Origin: a virus
Lineage: Duplodnaviria > Heunggongvirae > Uroviricota > Caudoviricetes
Strand: one strand, 5' to 3'
Length of the DNA stretch: 64,000 bases
IMG/VR virus record: IMGVR_UViG_3300024268_000040
Notes under the pieces: generated by a model
Told to the model about the DNA's origin: nothing
Database searches by the model: none
Seen by the model: only the letters and a program-made list of their open reading frames with translations
Translations under genes and position numbers: made by a program
Part shown: positions 4,493-33,022 of the stretch, one piece after another
Layout: each line of letters starts with the position of its first letter
Position numbering within the stretch: position 1 is the stretch's first letter

Positions 4493-4523
4493 CTAGGGTA
4501 GATTTTTCTACCCTAGTTTTTTC
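4493..4523 (+). terminator. Rho-independent terminator.
   Basis: ctagggtag-atttt-ctaccctag hairpin plus T6. Confidence 0.5.
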
Positions 4524-4553
4524 ATATCAATTTTGAGAGAAGGGAGAATATTT

Positions 4554-7079
4554 ATGGCTGTAAAAACTTACACAAAAGGAATTGCAACTAAATTAAGCAC
4601 AAATTTTAAGTCTACTGAATTTGACTGTCATGGATCTGGTTGCTGTTCTAAAACTTTAGTTGATGACAAATTAGTGGAATATTTACAAAAAATCAGAGAC
4701 CATTTTGGCAAGCCTGTAAATGTAAGTTCTGCTTATCGTTGTACTACACATAATAAAAATGTTGGTGGAGCAACTGGCTCTCGTCATATGAAAGGCCAAG
4801 CTGCAGATATTTATATTACAGGAGTAAAACCTGCCGAAATTGCCAAATATGCTGAATCTATTGGTATTTTAGGCATTGGTTTGTATGAAACTGATAAAGA
4901 TGGTCACTTCGTCCATGTGGATACTAGAACTACTAAATCTTTTTGGTATGGTCAAGCGCAAGCTAAACGCACTACTTTTGGAGGCGCAGTAACAACCGCT
5001 ACTCCTCAAAAAGAATTATACCGAGTAAGAAAAACTTGGGCTGATAGTAAATCTCAATTAGGTGCATATAGCATTTTAGATAATGCAAAGAAGACTTGTG
5101 ATAAAGCTGGTGTTGGTTATTATGTTTTTAATTCAAAGGGGGAAATTGTATATCCAGTAGCAAAAGAAGAGAAAGAAGAAAATGCTATAATCATTGATAC
5201 CTCTAAGGTTAATACAAATGCCATTGATGAAAAAGTAATGTGGAATTATTTTAAATCTAAAGGCTTAAATGATTATGGTATTGCTGGTTTAATGGGAAAT
5301 CTTTTTGCTGAATCTGGTTTACGTCCTTGCAATTTACAGCAGACCTATGAAAAATCTCTTGGTATGAGTGATGCTGAATATACTGCCGCAGTAGATGCAG
5401 GAATTTATACTAACTTTATTAATGATAAAGCTGGTTATGGTTTGGCTCAATGGACCTATTGGAGTTTGAAGCAAGAAATGCTCACTTATTTCCAAGCCAA
5501 TAAAAAATCTATTGGTGATGGTACTACTCAGATGGAATTCCTATGTCACCAATTGTCAACTAGCTACAAATCTGTATGGACTACTTTACAAACAGCAAAA
5601 TCTGTTTTAGAAGCTTCTAATGCAGTATTATTAAAATTTGAGCGTCCCGCCGATCAAAGCGAGGCCGCACAAAACAAGAGAGCAGGATATGGTCAAAAAT
5701 ATTATGACAAATATGCTGTTAAAGAAGAAGTTAAAATTGAAATCCCAAAAGAAGGAGGAAACGGAAAAATGAAGTATTCTGCTTCTAATAAACCCCTTGT
5801 ATGCATGCAAACTCAAAGCACTTGTTATAAAGGAACAAGTAAAATGACTGTTAAAGGCGTTTTATGGCATTCTACTGGTGCTAATAACCCTAATTTAAAG
5901 CGTTATGTGCAACCAAGTGACAATGCTTCTGATAAAGAGGAAATGTTAGCATTATTAGGTATAAATCAATATAAAAATGATTGGAATCATATTGAACGTC
6001 AAGCAGGATTAAATTGTTGGATCGGTAAATTAGCTGATGGAACTGTTGCTACTATATAGACAATGCCTTGGGATTATAAGCCTTGGGGTTGTGGTAGTGG
6101 TTCTAAAGGGTCTTGTAATAGTGGTTGGATTCAGTTTGAAATTTGTGAAGATGGATTAACTGATAAAACCTATTTTGATAAAGTCTATAAAGAGGCATGT
6201 GAAATTACTGCATATTTATGTGATATGTTTGATATTGATCCTTTTGGTACCGTCCGTGTTAATGGTATTGACGTTCCAACTATCTTATGTCATGCAGATT
6301 CTTATAAGTTAGGATTAGGCTCCAATCATGGTGATATTAATCATTGGTTCCCTAAATTTGGTAAATCAATGGAAACTGCTCGTCAAGATGTTGCTGATTT
6401 AATGGGAACTAAAGTATCTGTAATCGAACCAGCTGAGCCCGATAAAAAGGACGATGTACCTGCGGCCGCACCCTCTAATGAAATGTATCGTGTAAGAAAG
6501 TCATGGGAAGATTCAAAAAGTCAAATTGGAGCATATAGTCAATTACAAAATGCAAAAAATGCTTGTGATAAAGCTGGTATTGGATATTATGTCTTCAATT
6601 CCAAAGGAGAAGTTATTTATCCTGAACAGCCAAAGAAAAACGAAGTCATTGAGGCTGTAAATGATTTACAATTAGGTTAGGCAGTATCTTTAAAAAATGG
6701 AGCAAAATATTCTTCTGGTGCTTCCATTCCTTCTTGGTTATTTGGTAAGAAATTATATGTGCGTGAAATCCGTGATGACGGTAAAGTCGTATTTTCTACT
6801 TTAGCTTCTGGAGATATTACTGGTGTGACTTATGCTACTAATTTATTACCTTATAACGGAGATAGTATAGCAGCTCCAAAAGTACCGGAGTTTGAATCTT
6901 ATTTAGTTAAAATTGTTGCTGATGTATTAAATGTTCGTGCGGGAGCAGGCGTTTAGTATCGTATTAATACTCAGGTTAAAAAAGGTCAAGTTTATACTAT
7001 TGTAGGAGAATAGTCTGGTTGGGGCAAATTGAAATCTGGCGCCGGTTGGATTTCACTTAACTATACTAAGAAAATTTAA
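4554..7079 (+). CDS. Giant modular cell-wall hydrolase (endolysin), ~841 codons with 4 in-frame TAGs (6057, 6678, 6954, 7011).
   Basis: N-terminal M15-type peptidase motif (SAYRC..HN..VGGA..SRH..GQAADI), then an Amidase02_C-like wall-binding repeat (YRVRKTWADSKSQLGAYS) and a lysozyme-like domain (GIAGLMGNLFAESGL). After TAG 6057 comes an amidase-like domain with a second wall-binding repeat. After TAG 6678 come two SH3b-like repeats. Listed ORFs 4533, 6063 and 6759 share one frame. SD aagggag before ATG 4554. Confidence 0.7.
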
Positions 7080-9098: not shown

Positions 9099-10886
9099 AT
9101 GGGAAAATTATAGATTAATGGGGATTTGCTTCTTGCAGCTGGTAATGAAGATCGCTTTTTAACATTTAATTACACTGGTGGAACTGGATATGATTGGCGC
9201 ATAGGTTATTTAGGATCTGGTGCAGGTAATGAAAACTTTTTAGTATTTTAGAGCGATAAAGAAGGTAGCACCTTTTATAATGCTTTAAAATTTGGCTTAA
9301 CTACATTAAATGCTGAGTTCGGTGGAACTGTAACTGCTTCATCATTTATTGGTAATTTAAGTGGTAATGCGTCTACTGCTTCCAAGCTATCTGCGGCACG
9401 CACTTTCACTATTGGAGATAGTAGTAAATCTTTTGATGGTAGCGGGAATGTGTCTTGGACATTAGCGGAGATAGGGGCTTCTGATAGGACTTTATTATTA
9501 GGTAATTCTAAAGCGATTTGGATTGATGGAAATGCAAACACTTATTATCCTGTTTATATTAATATGGGGCACGGTGGTATTTTATTTGGATGGGAGACTT
9601 TATCAATATCTCGCCGATATAATGACAGTGCGCCCAATAGCTGGAATACATCTACTCATAGGGGCGGTTTAACTTTTACACTGCGATGGAGTGGTGACTC
9701 AGGATGGGGCGGAAATGATCATAATATTATGGTTGAAGAATTTAGTGAAACTTATTCTACAATGGTTGGTGGTATGACATTATCCGTTGATGGACTAATA
9801 GTTTGGTTGCGCGGCGGCGGAGCAAGATATTACTTGAGTAGTCCATATGGCTTAGCTGCTTATGCAACTGTTTATTATGACGGATATACTGCTGGTGATG
9901 GGCGCACCTATTCTGCACGCAGTTATAATGCAGATACTGTAGCAAGTGAAATTCATTCAAAATGGCTTGTACGACCATGGGGAATATTTGCTGGAACCGC
10001 ATCTAATGCTGATACTATTGATGGACATCACTTTAACTGGGATGGCAAAGGTGGGCAGCCCACTTGGCTATGGGGCGCTAATGAATATGGTAATAGCTAT
10101 GTGTATAATCCAGCTAATTTTAGTGTAAATTATGCTAATAGTGCTGGAAGTGCAGGTAGCTCCACAACTACTTCTTATCCAGCGGGATTTGTTTAGAGGG
10201 CATCCACATCAGATTGGGGTACTGTGCGAACTGGCTTAATTACGGAGTGGGATGCTGGCCCAAACAGTAATAAAGGCGCAGTGGCTTTTATGGCATATCC
10301 GAGTGCGAATGAAGTTAGTGTTAAAATTGATGGTTATTTTTTCTAGAATGAAGGTAATAATAGGGTATTGGATATTGGAGATATTCCTGTTAACAGTGCT
10401 TCAGCATGGTTAAATACTTCTGGGTGGTATAAAATCGCTACAGTAACTAAATACAGCGGAAATACTGGCCCTTTATCTGTATTATTAATTATTGGAAAGA
10501 ACTATTCATATTCAACTAGTGATATGTTTACTATTTTAGTTCAAGGCGGTTATTATAATACATAGTTTATTCCTCTTGGACATTGTGATAATGGCCTTGA
10601 TTGCTTTACTTATATTCGTTCCACTGGAGATGGGGCCGCAACTGGATTTGACATTGAAGTATATTTAAATACTCCTTCTGGAGGTAATAATTTTTATGTT
10701 AAAGCTGTTGCGCTAATCGGTAATGTTTCTTGTCATGCATTTGCCTCACCATCTGGGTCAGTAATGAAAACTTATCAAATTCAAAATTGTACCCATAATG
10801 GAACTTTTGGTACTACTGATCCAGCTTCTAATCCCTCTGCGATTCCTGGCTATGGTGAAACTGGTGCAATTTATTATAAAATTTAA
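9099..10886 (+). CDS. Tail fiber paralog 2 (595 codons; TAGs at 9111, 9249, 10194, 10344, 10563; stop TAA 10884).
   Basis: SD gaaaggag before ATG 9099. Translated codon by codon: MGKL-Q-INGDLLLAAGNEDRF... continues in frame into listed ORFs 9450 and 10368 with no TAA/TGA. C-terminus ...GAIYYKI. Confidence 0.75.
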
Positions 10887-14533: not shown

Positions 14534-14866
14534 ATGTCAGATTATGGCGTAAAAGACATAAAGACGCTTGAAGGCATCGAAGCGATTAGACTTCGTCCTG
14601 GTATGATAGATTATTGTATTGAGCATCAGTATGAACTTCCACGAAGATTACAATATTATGCTAAATATTATCCAAATGTATCATTTTCCCAAGCATTGGA
14701 GTTATATTCTTTGTCTGTTCGAGAGGTTATTGTTCTTTTCCAAGCCAAACATTTATTTGACGCTTCTTTAAGTTTTGGTCGTGGTCTTATTTATGCAAGA
14801 GACAAATGGCTTGAAAAAATGTCCCAAGCAGAAAAAATTGCGGCCGCATACCTACTGGCGGAATAA
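14534..14866 (+). CDS. Small protein whose first ~25 aa duplicate the N-terminal arm of the topoisomerase B subunit.
   Basis: MSDYGVKDIKTLEGIEAIRLRPGMI matches AEYGVNQIKTLEGIEAIRLRAGMYI at the start of the 15695 gene. The DNA differs almost entirely at synonymous sites. The rest is unrelated sequence. Confidence 0.5.
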   Translation: MSDYGVKDIKTLEGIEAIRLRPGMIDYCIEHQYELPRRLQYYAKYYPNVSFSQALELYSLSVREVIVLFQAKHLFDASLSFGRGLIYARDKWLEKMSQAEKIAAAYLLAE

Positions 14867-14963
14867 GGGTCAGTTTCACCGATTTCGTCCCGGCATTGGT
14901 CCGGAATGGAAAATTGACTTTTATCAATTTTTATGATATAATAGAAAGGTAAGGTGAATTTCT

Positions 14964-15716
14964 ATGTATCAAATTTATAAAATAACTAATCAAAAAAATG
15001 GAATGGTCTATATTGGTTCATCAATTGAAGTTGAACGCAGATGGAGACAACATAAAGAAGCTTCCATTAATGAGAAAGACCATCATTATAATTATCCTTT
15101 AATGATTGCTTTTAGAGAGTTCGGTATTGATAATTTTACTTTTGAGATTATTGAAACTCTACCTTCTTGGGAAGAGATGATTGAAGCCGAACATAATTGG
15201 ATTGTAAAAGAAGATTGTGTAAAACCAAAAGGCTACAATCAGACTGATAAAACTGATAGCCCAATGTTTGATCCCTCTATCGCAAAAAAAATGAGTGATA
15301 CTAAACGAGTTAAATATGGTAAAAAAGTTTGTGAAATCTCTTCTAATAAAGAAATTGTCGGAGCATGGAATTCGTTAGCAGAAGCTGGTGAAAACACGGG
15401 TCTTGACCGATTTAAGATTAGTGATGTGTGCAATGGCCGACGTTTAACCACCGGAGGTAGAGTGTTTAGATTTACTGATGAAGAAGGTAATTTAATTGAA
15501 CCTGAAATAAAAGTAAATAAAACTCAAACCAGTAGAATTACAAAATCCAGTAGGAAAGTTGTAAAAATGAATGATAATAATGAAGAATTACAAGTTTATG
15601 ATAGCGTAGCACGTGCGGCCGCAGATAATAATTGCGACGCAAGTGCCATATCAAAAGTTTGTAACGGTTCAAGAAATAAATGTGGAGGTTTTAAATGGAA
15701 ATACCTAACAATGTAA
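14964..15716 (+). CDS. GIY-YIG homing endonuclease, free-standing, standard alphabet (no TAG).
   Basis: IYKITNQKNGMVYIGSS...RRWRQH motif set, with a C-terminal DNA-binding region. Inserted between the gyrB-arm ORF and the full topoisomerase gene. Confidence 0.85.
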   Translation: MYQIYKITNQKNGMVYIGSSIEVERRWRQHKEASINEKDHHYNYPLMIAFREFGIDNFTFEIIETLPSWEEMIEAEHNWIVKEDCVKPKGYNQTDKTDSPMFDPSIAKKMSDTKRVKYGKKVCEISSNKEIVGAWNSLAEAGENTGLDRFKISDVCNGRRLTTGGRVFRFTDEEGNLIEPEIKVNKTQTSRITKSSRKVVKMNDNNEELQVYDSVARAAADNNCDASAISKVCNGSRNKCGGFKWKYLTM

Positions 15717-17614
15717 ATAATGCTGAATATGGCGTTAATCAAATTAAAACCTTGGAAGGAATTGAAGCAATTCGTCTTCGTGCGGGAATGTATATCGGAA
15801 GTGTTGGACCCGAAGGTGTCAGACACATCACACTCGAAATCATTTCTAATGCAGTTGATGAATATTTAAATGGACATTGTACTCATTGCACCATTGACGT
15901 TGGAGAAGATGGCGTAATTTGTATTCATGACAATGGTCGTGGCGTTCCTTTTGGCAAGGCTGAGGATGGTAGTGAAGTTTTAGTTAATGTTTATACCAAG
16001 CTTCATACTGGTGCAAAGTTTGATAGCTCTGGCAAGACTGGCTATAATACCTCCGGTGGTATGAATGGTGTCGGTGCTAAAGCAACAAATGCATTGTCTG
16101 AAATTTTTACTGTTGTATCTTATCGTGACGGTAAAAAGGCTACAGCCGAATTTGCTCGTGGCGAGTTATTAAAATATAATGAAGTACAAGATCCCAATCA
16201 AAAAGTTACCGGCACAGCTATTATGTTTAAACCAGATGCCACCATTTTTAAAGAAGGCATTATGCTTGAATACGCTCCTCTCAAGAAGCAAATCCAAGAG
16301 TTAGCTTACTTATCTCCTGGCTTAGTATTTGAACTAAACTATAAAGACACTAAAGAAACTATTACTTCTCAAAACGGTATTCGTGATTACATTAATGACC
16401 TAAACGATGGTAAAAATAAAGTAACTTCTGTATTCTATACTGAAAGTATGGAAGATAGAATTGGTGTAAAAATTGCTATGCAATATAATGATACTTATAC
16501 TGATATGTATCGCTTATATACCAACTCCATTCCCAATAGTGCGGGAACCCACTTGACCGGTTTCAGAACCGCGCTCACTTCTACAATCAACGAGTATGCT
16601 CGTGAAAAAAAGCTACTCAAAGAAAAAGATGCCAATATTACTGGTGAAGAATTGAAGGAAGGTTTAGTTCTTGTCCTGTCCTTCATTATGCCTGACCCTG
16701 TTTTCTCCGGTCAGACAAAGGATGTTCTCTCCAGTAGTGAGGCTCGTACCGCAGTACAACGATTGACCGCAAGAGAAATTAAAGTTTGGCTTGATGCAAA
16801 TCCAAAAGATGCCAAAGCAATCGTAGATAAGGCTCTTCTGGCTCGTGCGGCCCGTGAAAAGGCAAAGAAAGCCAAGGAAACCGTGCGGAAGGTCGATAAT
16901 AAGCGGCGTGTACTCTTACCTGATGTATTGAGTGATGCCAACTCTAAGGATCGTCACCTCTGTGAAGTATTCCTCGTTGAGGGTAAATCCGCTGCCGGTA
17001 CTACAATCGAAGCTCGTGACCGCAATACCCAGGCTGTTTTCCAGCTTCGTGGTAAGATTTTGAATGTTTTGAAAACTGATTTACATAAGGCTCTTCAGAA
17101 TAAGGAAATTAGCGGTATGATTGACGCCTTCGGTTTGGAAGTTAAAGATGGTAAGGTTATCGTTGATGAATCTAAGCTGAGATATGGCAAGATTATTATC
17201 ACCGCGGATGCTGATGTCGACGGAAGCCACATTCGAGTCCTGTTCCTTACATTCATTTGGAAATTCTGTCCCGAGCTTATTGAAAAGGGATATATTTATG
17301 CAGCAGTACCTCCTCTATATAAAGCAACATATGGTACCAATATCAAGTATCTCGTAAATGATGCTGCGCTCAATGAATTTAGAGCTGGTATGAAGAGATC
17401 TTTTGAGCTGGGTCGTATGAAAGGCTTAGGTGAGATGGACCCAGATGAAATGGCTGAAACTGTTATGAATGCTAAGACTCGTATTCTTAAACAGATTACT
17501 ATGGAAGACGCAGCAGCAGTCGCGCAGACATTTATGAGTTTAATGGGAGAGTCGGTTACGCCCAGAAAGAAGTTCATTGAAGAGAACTCTTGGAGGGCTA
17601 ATATTGATGTCTGA
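15695..17614 (+). CDS. Type IIA DNA topoisomerase ATPase/TOPRIM subunit (GyrB/ParE/T4 gp39-like), 639 aa, TAG-free.
   Basis: GHKL motifs (EIISNAVDE, DNGRGVP, GG.NGVG). TOPRIM motifs (LVEGKSAAG, ADADVDGSHI). Confidence 0.9.
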   Translation: MEIPNNVNNAEYGVNQIKTLEGIEAIRLRAGMYIGSVGPEGVRHITLEIISNAVDEYLNGHCTHCTIDVGEDGVICIHDNGRGVPFGKAEDGSEVLVNVYTKLHTGAKFDSSGKTGYNTSGGMNGVGAKATNALSEIFTVVSYRDGKKATAEFARGELLKYNEVQDPNQKVTGTAIMFKPDATIFKEGIMLEYAPLKKQIQELAYLSPGLVFELNYKDTKETITSQNGIRDYINDLNDGKNKVTSVFYTESMEDRIGVKIAMQYNDTYTDMYRLYTNSIPNSAGTHLTGFRTALTSTINEYAREKKLLKEKDANITGEELKEGLVLVLSFIMPDPVFSGQTKDVLSSSEARTAVQRLTAREIKVWLDANPKDAKAIVDKALLARAAREKAKKAKETVRKVDNKRRVLLPDVLSDANSKDRHLCEVFLVEGKSAAGTTIEARDRNTQAVFQLRGKILNVLKTDLHKALQNKEISGMIDAFGLEVKDGKVIVDESKLRYGKIIITADADVDGSHIRVLFLTFIWKFCPELIEKGYIYAAVPPLYKATYGTNIKYLVNDAALNEFRAGMKRSFELGRMKGLGEMDPDEMAETVMNAKTRILKQITMEDAAAVAQTFMSLMGESVTPRKKFIEENSWRANIDV

Positions 17615-29647: not shown

Positions 29648-30310
29648 GTGGCACACATAGTAACTTGCCCGTATTGTAAAATAAGATTCGATCGTGATAA
29701 GGAAGAATATGCCCTTGTCTCTGCGCGTCGATACGCCCACGCCGCATGTATGCTTCGTGAAGCAGAAAAAGACCCGAATTATGTAAAGAAAGAAATTATT
29801 GATCCAAACGATAATGTAGTTTGTGCTTATTGTAAAAAGCCAATGTCTAAAAAAGACGAAGATTGTGTTATGGTTGGCAATAATAAGTACGTGCATAAAG
29901 CGTGTCAAGAGTTGGAAGAGCATCGAGAAAAAACAGATAGAGAAAAACTGGAAGAATATATCAAAGAATTATTCCAAGTTTCATATATCGAGCCTCGTGT
30001 CAAAGCACAAATCAAGAAGTATGTAGAAGAATATAATTACACATATTCTGGTATGCAAAAAGCCTTATATTATCACTATGAAATAAAAGGTGGGGATAAA
30101 TCCAAAGCCAATGGTGGCATTGGTATTGTTCCATATGTATATCAAAATGCTTATAACTATTTCTATGAATTGTGGTTAGCTCAACAGAAGAATAAAGATG
30201 TGCAAATTGAATTATATCAGCCGAGAGTCAAGGAAATTGTCATTCCTCGACCCGAGCGTAAAGTAAAAAAACGTCCATTATTTACATTTTTGGACGAGGA
30301 AGGGGAATGA
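29648..30310 (+). CDS. Zinc-finger protein (two CxxC...H..AC/HKAC units), GTG start.
   Basis: SD aaaggag 8 nt before GTG 29648. TGA stop overlaps the dnaB start. Confidence 0.45.
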   Translation: MAHIVTCPYCKIRFDRDKEEYALVSARRYAHAACMLREAEKDPNYVKKEIIDPNDNVVCAYCKKPMSKKDEDCVMVGNNKYVHKACQELEEHREKTDREKLEEYIKELFQVSYIEPRVKAQIKKYVEEYNYTYSGMQKALYYHYEIKGGDKSKANGGIGIVPYVYQNAYNYFYELWLAQQKNKDVQIELYQPRVKEIVIPRPERKVKKRPLFTFLDEEGE

Positions 30311-30313
30311 TGA

Positions 30314-31362
30314 ATGGCGTCTAAATACGTCGATACAACAGCTATAATGTAGGTTATTGGCTGTGTTTTCAATACTCCTCAACTTTTGGAAATTACTGAT
30401 AGGTATTCAATCGTTGATGAAGATTTCGCCGATCCGTTTCACAAAACGATTTTCGGTGCAATTTATAAAATCCATGAGTTAGGTGCGAATAAAATTACAT
30501 TAGAAAGCATTTCTGATTTCTTCGCATCTCGACCCAAGAGCGCGGCTGTATATAAGCAAGGGAAGGGCGAAGAATGGCTACTCAAGGTATCTGAGAGTAG
30601 TATTCCATCAGCCTTCGATTATTATTACGGTCGTTTGAAAAAATTCTCTCTATTGAGAGCATTTGATAACTGCGGCATTGATGTTACTGACATTTATGAC
30701 CCAGATAATATTTTGGATGTAAAGAAGAAACAACTTCAAGAGGATCAATTAGATAATTCTTCACTGGAACAGATTGCTGATATTGTCGATGCGAAGATTG
30801 ATAATATTAGATTGCAATATGTTGATGATGCTTTTGGTGAAGCTCAACAAGCCGGTGAAGGTATTTTTGATTTGATTGAGAAATTCAAACAGCATCCAGA
30901 AGTCGGTGTACCTCTATATGGTCCGCTAATCAATACAGTTACTCGAGGCGCAAGACTGAAGAAATTTTACTTGCGGTCTGCGGCTACTGGTATCGGTAAG
31001 ACCCGTTCAATGATTGCGGATTGCTGCTACATCGGCTGCAATAAGATATATGATGAAACATTTGGTTGGATTGGCAGCGGTCCTGCAGAGCCAGTCTTAT
31101 TTATCACGACCGAGCAGGAGCTTGAAGAAATCCAAACTATGATGTTGGCATTTTTATCAAATGTAAATGAGGAACATATTCTAAATGGTGAGTATGGTGA
31201 GGGTGAGGAAGAGCGTGTTATGCAGGCTGCTAAACTCTTGAAAGAAAGTCCTATTTATGTTGAAGAATTACCAGATTTCTCATTGAAAGATGTAGAAGAT
31301 AAGATAAAGAAAAATATTCGTGAGCACGATGTAAAATATGTGTTCAACCCTATTAAAAGGGT
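30314..31362 (+). CDS. dnaB: DnaB-family replicative helicase, exon 1 (3' boundary approximate, 31347-31362). TAG at codon 13.
   Basis: SD gaggaagggga before ATG 30314. The N-terminal domain, Walker A SAATGIGKT and H1a region run into ...HDVKYVF. The read-through ORF hits TGA at 31373 inside intron sequence. Confidence 0.7.
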
Positions 31363-32435
31363 GTTGGGACAATGAAACACTTTTCCGCTAATCAGCGGGG
31401 TACCTGCGGCGGGCCCGGTCAAAGACCGGCGAACCGAGCAACCGCAAGTGCTAACGGGGAACCCTAAACAGTAATGCATGGGAATCCCGTGGGAAACTTT
31501 GGACGGAACTAGTCAATTGAGCTTTGACTTCTTTCATACTATAATGAAAGGAGTGGTTCTATGGGAATTATTTATTGTTTTACAAATAATGTAAATGGTA
31601 AAAAATATATCGGACAATCCATTAGCAAAGGTAATGCTCGATATAATAATCATAAAAGCAGTTATAAAAATCCAGATGATTGTGAATATGAATCTCCACT
31701 TCATCGAGCATTCCGCAAACACGGATTTGAAAATTTTACTTATGAAGTATTAGCACAAGATGTTGAAAATATTGATTTATTAAATCAATTAGAAATTCAA
31801 TATATTCAACAATATAATTGTCAAATACCAAATGGTTATAATATTGAACCCGGCGGTAAAAATTGTGCTAAACCCAAAACAATAGAGCATAGAAAGAAAG
31901 AAATTTGGGCTCAAGCGAAATTGACAGAAGAAGAAGTTATTGAATTAAGAAAGGCATATCAAAGAAAAGAAAGTCCTACTAAAATATATAAAGAAAAGTA
32001 TGAAGATATAATGCATTATAATTCTTTTCTAAATATTTGGTCTGGACGAAGATATGCTCTTATTATGCCAGAAGTATTTGAAAATGGACGTCATACAAAA
32101 CTCAATGCTGAAACTGTAAAACTTATTAGAAAGGATAGAGAAGAAACAAATCTTTCTTATGATAAGTTAGCAGAGAAGTATGGCATTTCAAAAGGCACTA
32201 TTGCTGACATAATCAAAAAACGAACTTGGAAAGATGTCTAAAGAACCTGTATCGACTATCCCCCAGGCCTTCTGGGCGGGGGAGTAGGGGTGCTATTGAT
32301 ACGCACTTGGATTTTAGGAAACGAAGTCCATTAAATGCCGAAACGGTGTCCTGCGGGACCCGGTCAGCCGTTCGCTGAACCGGGGCGACCGCAGTAAAAG
32401 ATAGTCAGCGCTTATAGAAATATAAGAGTCCGTTG
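31363..32435 (+). mobile_element. Group I intron (td-like core) carrying a GIY-YIG homing endonuclease gene; boundaries approximate.
   Basis: IGS candidate aacac (31376) complements exon gtgtt. aacggggaacc...ggaatcccgtgg resembles the td-intron P4-P6 core. R-like ggtcaaagaccgg and S-like aagatagtcagc elements are present. P9 hairpin cttata-gaaa-tataag before a terminal G. Coding resumes in frame ...DYIHTSLKILEE. Confidence 0.55.
31561..32241 (+). CDS. Intron-encoded GIY-YIG homing endonuclease.
   Basis: GIIYCFTNNVNGKKYIGQS...R..NH motifs. C-terminal HTH-like DNA-binding region. Its own SD aaaggag. Confidence 0.85.
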   Translation: MGIIYCFTNNVNGKKYIGQSISKGNARYNNHKSSYKNPDDCEYESPLHRAFRKHGFENFTYEVLAQDVENIDLLNQLEIQYIQQYNCQIPNGYNIEPGGKNCAKPKTIEHRKKEIWAQAKLTEEEVIELRKAYQRKESPTKIYKEKYEDIMHYNSFLNIWSGRRYALIMPEVFENGRHTKLNAETVKLIRKDREETNLSYDKLAEKYGISKGTIADIIKKRTWKDV

Positions 32436-32946
32436 CCACGATTATATTCATACGAGTTTGAAAATTTTGGAAGAAATCACTAAGCGTTCTGGTGGTGTCA
32501 AACTGAGAGAAGATAATATCTTGTTTATGTTATCTACTCGATTGAAAGATATCTGCAACCAACATGGTGTGTTTATCATGTCAGCCACTCAGTTGAACGG
32601 TGATTACCAGGATAGTAAAACTCCAGACCAGAACTTACTGCGTGGTGCGAAAGCTATCGCAGATAAGATTGACTATGGCTCCATTCTTCTTTCTGTAAAA
32701 GATGATGATTTGGTAGCCTTAGAAAATATATTATCCTCTAATATTTTTGAAAGACCTACAATTAAGATGTCAATTTACAAAAATAGACGAGGTAGATATA
32801 AGGGCGTAATTTTATGGTGTAAGGCAGATTTGGGCGTGTGTCGTATTAAACCAATGTTCTGCACTACCTATGATTATGAAATGGTGAGTATTGACGATGT
32901 TCGTATTAGAATTGACGAAGAATCAGCCTTCGAGTGCGAAGAGTAA
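32436..32946 (+). CDS. dnaB: DnaB-family helicase, exon 2 (5' boundary approximate).
   Basis: NILFMLSTRLKDICNQHGVFIMSATQLN matches the DnaB H3/H4 region EISRSLKALAKELNVPVVALSQLNR. Stop TAA 32944. Confidence 0.7.
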
Positions 32947-33022
32947 TCGAGGGCTGAGAGCAAAAGCTAATTTGTTACATGATTCCGATTTTGGAATTGT
33001 AAATAAGAAGGAGATAAATGAA

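Follow-up and report, generated by a model that had tools for sequence, protein, structure and literature searches.

A td-like group I intron with a GIY-YIG endonuclease gene in the Walker B codons of a phage DnaB-like helicase gene

Background

The closest described systems to the element presented here are the td and nrdB introns of the T4 bacteriophage, two introns of group IA2 with experimentally proven self-splicing. The td intron carries the gene of the GIY-YIG homing endonuclease I-TevI, and the nrdB intron holds the remnant of I-TevIII. DnaB-family helicases are also reportedly invaded by inteins, selfish elements that are said to carry homing endonucleases and to target the best conserved ATPase motifs of these replicative enzymes. 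In the present work we analysed a DNA stretch of 64,000 nucleotides (the window, taken at its full length) from an uncultivated phage of the Caudoviricetes (IMG/VR record IMGVR_UViG_3300024268_000040). A DnaB-like helicase gene on its + strand (30314-32946) is interrupted by a 1,091-nt insertion at 31345-32435, which is, with high confidence, a mobile td-type (IA2-like) group I intron seated in the Walker B codons and bearing a gene with GIY-YIG and helix-turn-helix (HTH) domains.

A group I intron with a GIY-YIG homing endonuclease gene had been proposed at this place by a sequence-only reading of the window, and the exact insertion, the covarying core, the relatives at the same site and a family covariance model all uphold it. 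Since intron-less alleles, same-site homologues, covariation and the family model agree, the insertion cannot be ascribed to chance.

Results

The interrupted helicase gene and its exact junction

30314-31344, + strand: helicase exon 1, 344 codons minus 1 nt, ending ...GTG TT, with U31344 at the 5' splice site
31345-32435, + strand: very probable group I intron, 1,091 nt, td-like, IA2-type (intron-less alleles, covariation, family covariance model R1)
32436-32946, + strand: helicase exon 2, C CAC GAT TAT ... TAA, opening with the Walker B Asp-Tyr

Translation showed that the helicase frame runs from the ATG at 30314 through ...NIREHDVKYVF to a TGA stop at 31373-75, and that it reopens from 32398, reading ...HDYIHTSLKILEE... 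up to the TAA at 32944-46. The break after ...HDVKYVF and the resumption about 1.1 kb later had been noticed before, and are borne out by these translations and by uninterrupted homologues. The gene start was set at 30314, with an in-frame TAG at 30350-52 (codon 13), replacing the TTG at 30386 of the mechanical open reading frame (ORF) list. The N-terminal part alone matches the Pfam families DnaB and DnaB_C (35 bits for the latter), and the C-terminal fragment alone has no Pfam match. When spliced, the 513 aa product is matched by DnaB_C in a single stretch that runs through the junction (59 bits; residues 206-470 against profile positions 9-244 of 255). Both exons are open and the protein is 94-95% identical to uninterrupted homologues. 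Phage GenBank sequences, searched with 30300-33000, contained short segments of the ribozyme but no close relative of the helicase or of the complete intron.

A protein search with the joined helicase halves returned 6,303 relatives, the best 120 of which are uninterrupted, 512-513 aa long and 89-95% identical. The string ...Y[VI]xHDYIHTS, or the near variant FQDY, is present in 119 of these 120, and 87 of them read exactly KYVFHDYIHTS (...KYVFHDYIHTSLKILEE). Concerning DNA, the intron-less alleles L032-L034, located in the same gene neighbourhood, read tatgtgtt/ccacgattat (the slash here and below marks the insertion point), which equals window positions 31337-44 joined to 32436-45, base for base. 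The site of L032 (4000-4060) reads ...tattcgtgaacatgatgtaaagtatgtgtt/ccacgattatattcat..., and the helicases of the best 80 IMG/VR relatives are all uninterrupted. The junction is thus fixed to the base, by uninterrupted homologues and intron-less DNA alleles, at 31344/32436, where U31344 is the last base of the 5' exon and G32435 the last base of the intron. As C31345 and C32436 are the same base, a 1-nt ambiguity was settled by the canonical U(-1)/G(omega) rule, giving 31345-32435; the introns established at the same helicase site all end in G.

Two splice pairs had been considered possible by eye. The first, 31347/32435, was correct at its 3' end and 3 nt off at the 5' side, where it gives VFNHDY, a string absent from the homologues. 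The second, 31362/32440, breaks the reading frame, with loss of the Asp codon of Walker B. The junction had also been assigned to the H3/H4 region of DnaB and has to be moved to Walker B/H2 (hhhhDY), a placement that presumes the established knowledge of the DnaB motifs. What we take to be the H3-like (SATQLNGD) and H4-like (KNRRGR) motifs are located downstream, in exon 2.

Ribozyme fold

31341-31371, + strand: P1, exon UGUU (31341-44) with guide GACA (31368-71), U31344·G31368 wobble at the splice site
31345-51/31358-67, + strand: P1 extension hairpin, as read from the sequence
32436-39 (3' exon CCAC) with 31363-67, + strand: P10, as read from the sequence
31377-81 (ACACU) with 32345-49 (GGUGU), + strand: P3, 93% of cells pairing, 4 of 5 pairs changed on both sides
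31385-98, + strand: P3.1 hairpin, compensatory changes
31400-51, + strand: P3.2 hairpin, compensatory changes, GC-rich extension, J3/4 (CUAA) next to it
31454-59/31485-90, + strand: P4, invariant in 32 sequences, equal to T4 td
31462-64/31480-82, + strand: P5, covarying, with A-rich J4/5 and J5/4 between P4 and P5
31469-76, + strand: P5a, GUAA loop
31497-504 (CUUUGGAC) with 32236-43 (GUCUAAAG), + strand: P6, 8 of 8 pairs changed on both sides
32249-53, + strand: J6/7 strand GUAUC, pairing with the P7.2a loop (32298-302), 86% paired, one pair changed on both sides
32254-58/60 (5' GACUA(UC)) with 32400/02-06 (3' (GA)UAGUC), + strand: P7, core GACUA/UAGUC invariant and equal to td
32261-82, + strand: P7.1, part of the IA-type extra domain 32261-32339 between P7 and P3'
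32287-88/32338-39, + strand: P7.2 base, 98-100% paired, compensatory changes
32290-306, + strand: P7.2a, 98-100% paired, compensatory changes
32309-29, + strand: P7.2b, an extra hairpin, 98-100% paired, compensatory changes
32351-56/32389-94, + strand: P8, 6 of 6 pairs compensatory, GC-rich extension
32411-26, + strand: P9, GAAA loop, 6 of 6 pairs compensatory
32435, + strand: terminal omega G, exon 2 being placed directly after it by the intron-less alleles

The non-coding DNA on each side of the internal ORF, about 200 nt per side, has a G+C content of 51-59% vs about 30-35% around it, and folds into the helices listed above. P3 and P7 cross each other, forming the group I pseudoknot, and in ORF-less relatives a short loop closes the same P6 helix. 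The td-like core elements and the P9 hairpin of the sequence-only reading are found again in this fold, with blocks matching T4 td on both sides of the ORF. From its identity with the td P7, P7 is predicted to hold the guanosine site. The presence of P7.1 and P7.2, in the order seen in td and nrdB, points to the IA subgroup (IA2-like, td type).

Both splice sites are supported independently of the protein alignment, since P1 and P10 change in step with the exons. In the same-site intron of L009, exon UGGU faces guide GCCA, a compensatory change in P1, and the P10 pairings of the relatives are UCAC/GUGA (L009) and CUA/UAG (L089). In the alignment, the pair found most often at the splice-site column is U·G (12/22). 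An alternative P1 partner for exon GUGUU, AACAC at 31376-80, was rejected, because covariation makes it the 5' strand of P3 and it would place a non-canonical U-A at the splice site.

Most relatives share the P3-P3.1-P3.2 layout; in some, P3 directly adjoins J3/4, as in the classical arrangement. The automated search for P3 partners was noisy and was used only to see that both layouts occur among the relatives. The layout is not treated as new, since PMC3873408 includes P3.1 among the optional pairings of group I introns.

The tips of P3.2 (31403-31447) and P8 (32350-32394) bear similar GC-rich extensions, CCUGCGG..CCCGGUC...ACCGCA(A)G, which AT-rich relatives do not have. The closest relative, L079, has the P8 extension only, and L134 has a matching pair of its own; the window holds no further copy of either stretch. 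A small repeat or mobile element was considered and dropped, given the lack of another copy in the window and the similarly extended P8 of L079 and L134. We read the stretches as elaborations of peripheral stems; the pair may have arisen by internal duplication, or may serve as a paired device for tertiary contacts or protein binding.

Covariation and covariance models

The helices were drawn on the window (84 modelled pairs) and followed through an alignment of 32 relatives (A1). All 84 are standard pairs in the window, and 58 of them changed on both sides within the alignment. Pairing is found in 82.9% of the cells, vs 39-42% with partners slid by 1-3 columns, and 0 of 500 shuffles reach any observed covariation measure, although these slide and shuffle controls somewhat overstate significance, as the sequences are related and the structure was drawn on the window.

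A family covariance model (R1; 124 positions, 28 pairs) was built from the 3' halves of 20 relatives, with the window and its closest relative excluded. Its matches were as follows.

Window, 32244-32429: 81.6 bits, E-value 4.5e-20
T4 td: 44 bits, E-value 6.8e-10
T4 nrdB: 32.8 bits, E-value 7.6e-7

A single model thus matches all three, which links the window to two introns with proven self-splicing. Elsewhere in the window, R1 also gave a weak match at 5569-5717, inside a lysin-like gene (15.1 bits, E-value 0.046), which is probably due to chance.

Apart from the overstated controls, four further points weigh against the interpretation as an intron. P4 and the P7 core never vary and carry no covariation signal, so that these two helices rest on their identity with td. 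The 5' strand of P3 is parted from J3/4 by two hairpins, unlike td, a layout supported by covariation and absent from the textbook scheme. Splicing, homing and endonuclease activity are what we infer from the established group I mechanism and from I-TevI. Finally, the Rfam model RF00028 (Intron_gpI) has no match in the window at its gathering score (50 bits), nor in 31200-32600 at E ≤ 10. The sequence-only reading had named a covariance-model search as the check on the intron and the lack of a group I match as its refutation; taken to the letter, the Rfam result speaks for refutation, while R1 matches strongly.

The Rfam score is not a valid measure here, since RF00028 also puts both T4 introns below gathering. 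In the control locus L153, td (9594-9826) scores 40.3 bits and nrdB (4507-4749) 35.7 bits, and the model matches only their 3' halves. Among the relatives, L091 reaches 53.1 bits, above gathering, and L005 29.5 bits; L089, ORF-less at the same helicase site, scores 32.1 bits (E-value 2e-4), and the ORF-less same-family loci L007, L012, L031 and L003 give no match. The 681-nt ORF, the extra hairpins (P7.2b, extended P8) and the weakness of the model on this subgroup explain the miss, without removing it.

Homing endonuclease gene

31561-32241, + strand: homing endonuclease gene, 226 aa, N-terminal GIY-YIG and C-terminal HTH domain
31527-31554, + strand: hairpin burying the Shine-Dalgarno sequence, -16.3 kcal/mol, z -4.2, with TATAAT (31540-45) in the loop

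The endonuclease gene is established in the P6 loop and its stop codon (32239-41) lies within the 3' strand of P6. Both domains exceed their Pfam cut-offs, GIY-YIG with 24.1 bits (cut-off 22.6) and HTH_3, at residues 189-222, with 24.7 bits (cut-off 23). PHROG families annotated as 'homing endonuclease' match the protein as well (1.2e-30). Similarity with I-TevI is low and confined to the catalytic domain (E-value 0.0016). When aligned to that domain (1MK0), IY (4-5), YIG (16-18), R27 and NGYN (91-94) fall on the I-TevI motifs, and E78 faces position 75, which is Ala in the E75A mutant chain of 1MK0. The Tyr, Tyr, Arg, Glu and Asn of the catalytic positions are therefore all kept in this alignment.

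The gene has a ribosome-binding site of its own, AAAGGAG (31547-53), 7 nt upstream of the ATG, so that the internal GIY-YIG gene and Shine-Dalgarno sequence reported earlier both hold. Analogous hairpins, differing in sequence, stand upstream of the endonuclease genes in EF1, L092 and L004 and of T4 I-TevI, and by this analogy translation of the endonuclease is likely held back or delayed by the buried ribosome-binding site. A promoter-like TTGAGC-17 nt-TATAAT, with 10/12 matches, lies at 31517-31545, its -10 box in the loop of the hairpin; a transcript begun there would be without the masking arm. The promoter scan as a whole was not above chance (9 sites vs 5.1 +/- 2.8 expected), and the terminator scan gave no terminator-like sites. 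No I-TevI-style CNNNG was seen by eye 23-25 bp upstream of the insertion site.

Relatives of the intron

A distant BLAST search showed that 32238-32343 is 80-85% identical to DNA of Enterococcus phage EF1 and of Prevotella Lak megaphages. In EF1 the match is located just past a 223-aa ORF, which itself is placed between pieces annotated as 'DNA polymerase III alpha subunit' and 'hypothetical protein', and the entire EF1 element is colinear with that of the window. The family is abundant: the P4/P5 motif AACGGGGAA...AATCCCGTG is present at at least 120 IMG/VR loci, and the exact P7.2b 19-mer GATTTTAGGAAACGAAGTC at 29.

At the same helicase site, introns without an ORF are found in L007, L012, L015 and L089, and introns with an endonuclease gene in L009-11, L022, L052, L079 and L139. 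Related introns occupy the GyrB Toprim motif DADVDG/SHI in L004, L006, L028 and L029. The relationships of the window intron are mosaic: L079 is closest over the 5' part and the endonuclease gene (79-90%), L134 and L029 over the 3' part (83-93%). Presence or absence at one exact site, occurrence in unrelated genes and mosaicism together make up the usual footprint of a homing intron.

In two of the same-site loci, L012 (780-1700) and L015 (1500-2400), the helicase gene is interrupted twice, by ORF-less introns of this family with about 500 bp between them. The second one is established in the codons ...LLRG/(A)KSIADKID..., where the helicase of the window is uninterrupted.

TAG recoding and a second endonuclease gene

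TAG appears to be read as a sense codon in the window, probably as Gln. The helicase TAG at 30350-52 aligns with Gln in 120/120 homologues. Open frames with a length of 100 codons or more take up 81% of the window with the standard code vs 95% with TAG as sense, many long frames holding several TAGs, and in an 841-aa lysin-like frame (about 4554-7079) the Amidase_2 domain spans a TAG. No tRNA genes, hence no suppressor, were found in the window.

The endonuclease ORF of the window holds no TAG. Its counterpart in L009 (2403-3083), and also in L010, L011 and L022, has in-frame TAGs at positions where the window has Gln (LLNQLE, AYQRKE). The L009 copy, having TAGs at two Gln positions, thus belongs to a TAG-recoded phage, and it would need suppression to be translated. 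For an intron endonuclease of the TGA-recoded Agate phages, a similar idea has been put forward (bioRxiv 10.1101/2021.08.26.457843).

The P7.2b hairpin GAUUUUAGGAAACGAAGUC, which is invariant, and the layout P3-P3.1-P3.2 would mark a closely knit lineage that is found in Enterococcus phages, in Prevotella Lak megaphages and in this TAG-recoded phage, whose relatives are on contigs of about 200 kb. Quite speculatively, one td-like intron lineage might move among phages of different bacterial phyla and genetic codes, with TAG gating the endonuclease in recoded hosts. If this were true, the intron family would lend itself to tracing phage gene flow across phyla, as well as the adaptation of selfish genes to recoding.

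A second, free-standing GIY-YIG gene is located at 14964-15716, just upstream of a GyrB-like gene (15695-17614), and combines GIY-YIG with an I-HmuI NUMOD-like domain. Ahead of it lies an ORF of 110 aa (14534-14866), the first 25 or so residues of which (DYGVKDIKTLEGIEAIRLRPGM) duplicate the N-terminus of the GyrB-like protein (EYGVNQIKTLEGIEAIRLRAGM). This duplication within 14534-17614 resembles a scar left by recombination that an endonuclease had driven, and a ribozyme was not seen in that region.

Discussion

Proposed mechanism

In the mechanism that we propose, the helicase would be transcribed as one pre-mRNA, in which the intron RNA would fold into its P3-P9 catalytic core. An external guanosine held in P7 would attack after U31344, presented by the U31344·G31368 wobble of P1, and the 3' exon would dock through P10. 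The terminal G32435 would then replace the guanosine and the exons would be joined as ...GTG TTC CAC GAT... (VFHD), yielding the 513-aa helicase. For homing, by extension from I-TevI, the endonuclease would bind an intron-less helicase allele around tatgtgtt/ccacgat and cut nearby; in a mixed infection, repair from the intron-bearing genome would copy the intron in.

Alternative explanations

A decayed intron has to be considered, one that would no longer splice or would do so only with help, so that the helicase would be a pseudogene, or would rely on trans factors or on another copy. The missing Rfam match and the unusual GC-rich extensions, the P3.2 one being absent from the closest relative, would agree with decay, and splicing of the window intron is itself a prediction. 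Yet every core helix is intact, with all modelled pairs standard, and the extensions are well paired and cap peripheral stems, at the ends of which insertions are tolerated. Where P1 and P8 differ from those of the closest relatives, the changes compensate each other. Furthermore, the exon frames are open, at the identity with homologues given above and with a full DnaB_C match, and the endonuclease has kept all its catalytic residues. Decay is therefore, in our opinion, very unlikely.

We give still less credence to a helicase in pieces, in which a free-standing endonuclease cassette would have split the gene into two polypeptides that reassemble without RNA splicing, as reportedly happened to nrdA of Aeromonas phage Aeh1 through mobE. 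The endonuclease gene does have its own ribosome-binding site and an upstream promoter-like site, and the free-standing GIY-YIG gene next to the GyrB-like gene suggests that such cassettes are active in this genome. Nevertheless, the ORF is flanked by a ribozyme structure of about 410 nt that is conserved and covaries, and the cassette gives no reason for ORF-less structured-RNA copies at the same site. The split would also fall inside the Walker B strand, the first in-frame start of exon 2 (TTG 32458) being past the Walker B Asp and without a Shine-Dalgarno sequence, and the ends of the insertion are those of a canonical group I intron with P1 and P10 pairing.

An intein and a group II intron were rejected on account of in-frame stops, a separate ORF and the lack of both a reverse transcriptase and a domain V-like element.

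Significance

The mobile td-type intron is real, has exact limits and represents an ordinary case of a well-known kind of mobile element. It adds one more mobile intron that targets the most conserved codons of an essential replication gene, an element type long known, and does not challenge current understanding. Its practical weight concerns annotation. Gene callers break the locus into a shortened helicase, a stray C-terminal piece and a 'hypothetical protein', in place of a 513-aa helicase and a homing endonuclease. Additionally, the default Rfam group I threshold misses this intron as well as T4 td and nrdB, so that such introns are systematically missed in phage metagenomes.

Comparison with known systems

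The closest likeness is with T4 td. In the 5' half, 'gctaacggggaaccc...gggaatcccgtggg' of the window stands against 'ctaaacggggaacct...acaatcccgtgcta' of td. In the 3' half, 'cgactatcccc...ggggagtagggg...cgaaac...gatagtc' corresponds to 'cgactatccc...ggggagtaggg...cgaaac...gatatagtc'. P4/P5 is nearly the same (ACGGGGAACC...AAUCCCGUG) and P7 is the same (CGACUA/UAGUC), both introns have P7.1 and P7.2 between P7 and P3', and the joiners 'GAGUAGGG' and 'CGAAAC' are shared. Both also carry a GIY-YIG endonuclease gene in the P6 loop behind a hairpin that buries the ribosome-binding site, and both are matched by R1. The two differ in host gene, a helicase (Walker B) here and thymidylate synthase for td. 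The window intron has no P2 between P1 and P3, has P3.1 and P3.2 between P3 and J3/4, and possesses P7.2b, the pairing of J6/7 with a loop, and the extended P3.2 and P8. Its nuclease also departs from I-TevI, the DNA-binding end of which has a zinc-finger, minor-groove and HTH arrangement, whereas that of the window matches HTH_3.

The nrdB intron of T4 shares with the window the order P7, P7.1, P7.2, P3', P8, P7' and P9, but it has the classical layout with P3 abutting J3/4, an HNH-type endonuclease remnant and another host gene. Inteins are spliced as protein and are in frame; the window insertion, in contrast, has a helicase-frame stop at 31373-75, a separate ORF and a ribozyme fold. The nearest kin are the unannotated introns of the Enterococcus EF1/EF5 group, of the Lak megaphages and of IMG/VR, which have colinear ribozymes with 3' segments 80-93% identical, a GIY-YIG/HTH gene in P6 and the P3-P3.1-P3.2 layout. 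They differ in the genes that they occupy, namely 'DNA polymerase III alpha' in EF1, an NrdD-like gene in Lak and the GyrB Toprim motif in the four loci named above (L004, L006, L028 and L029).

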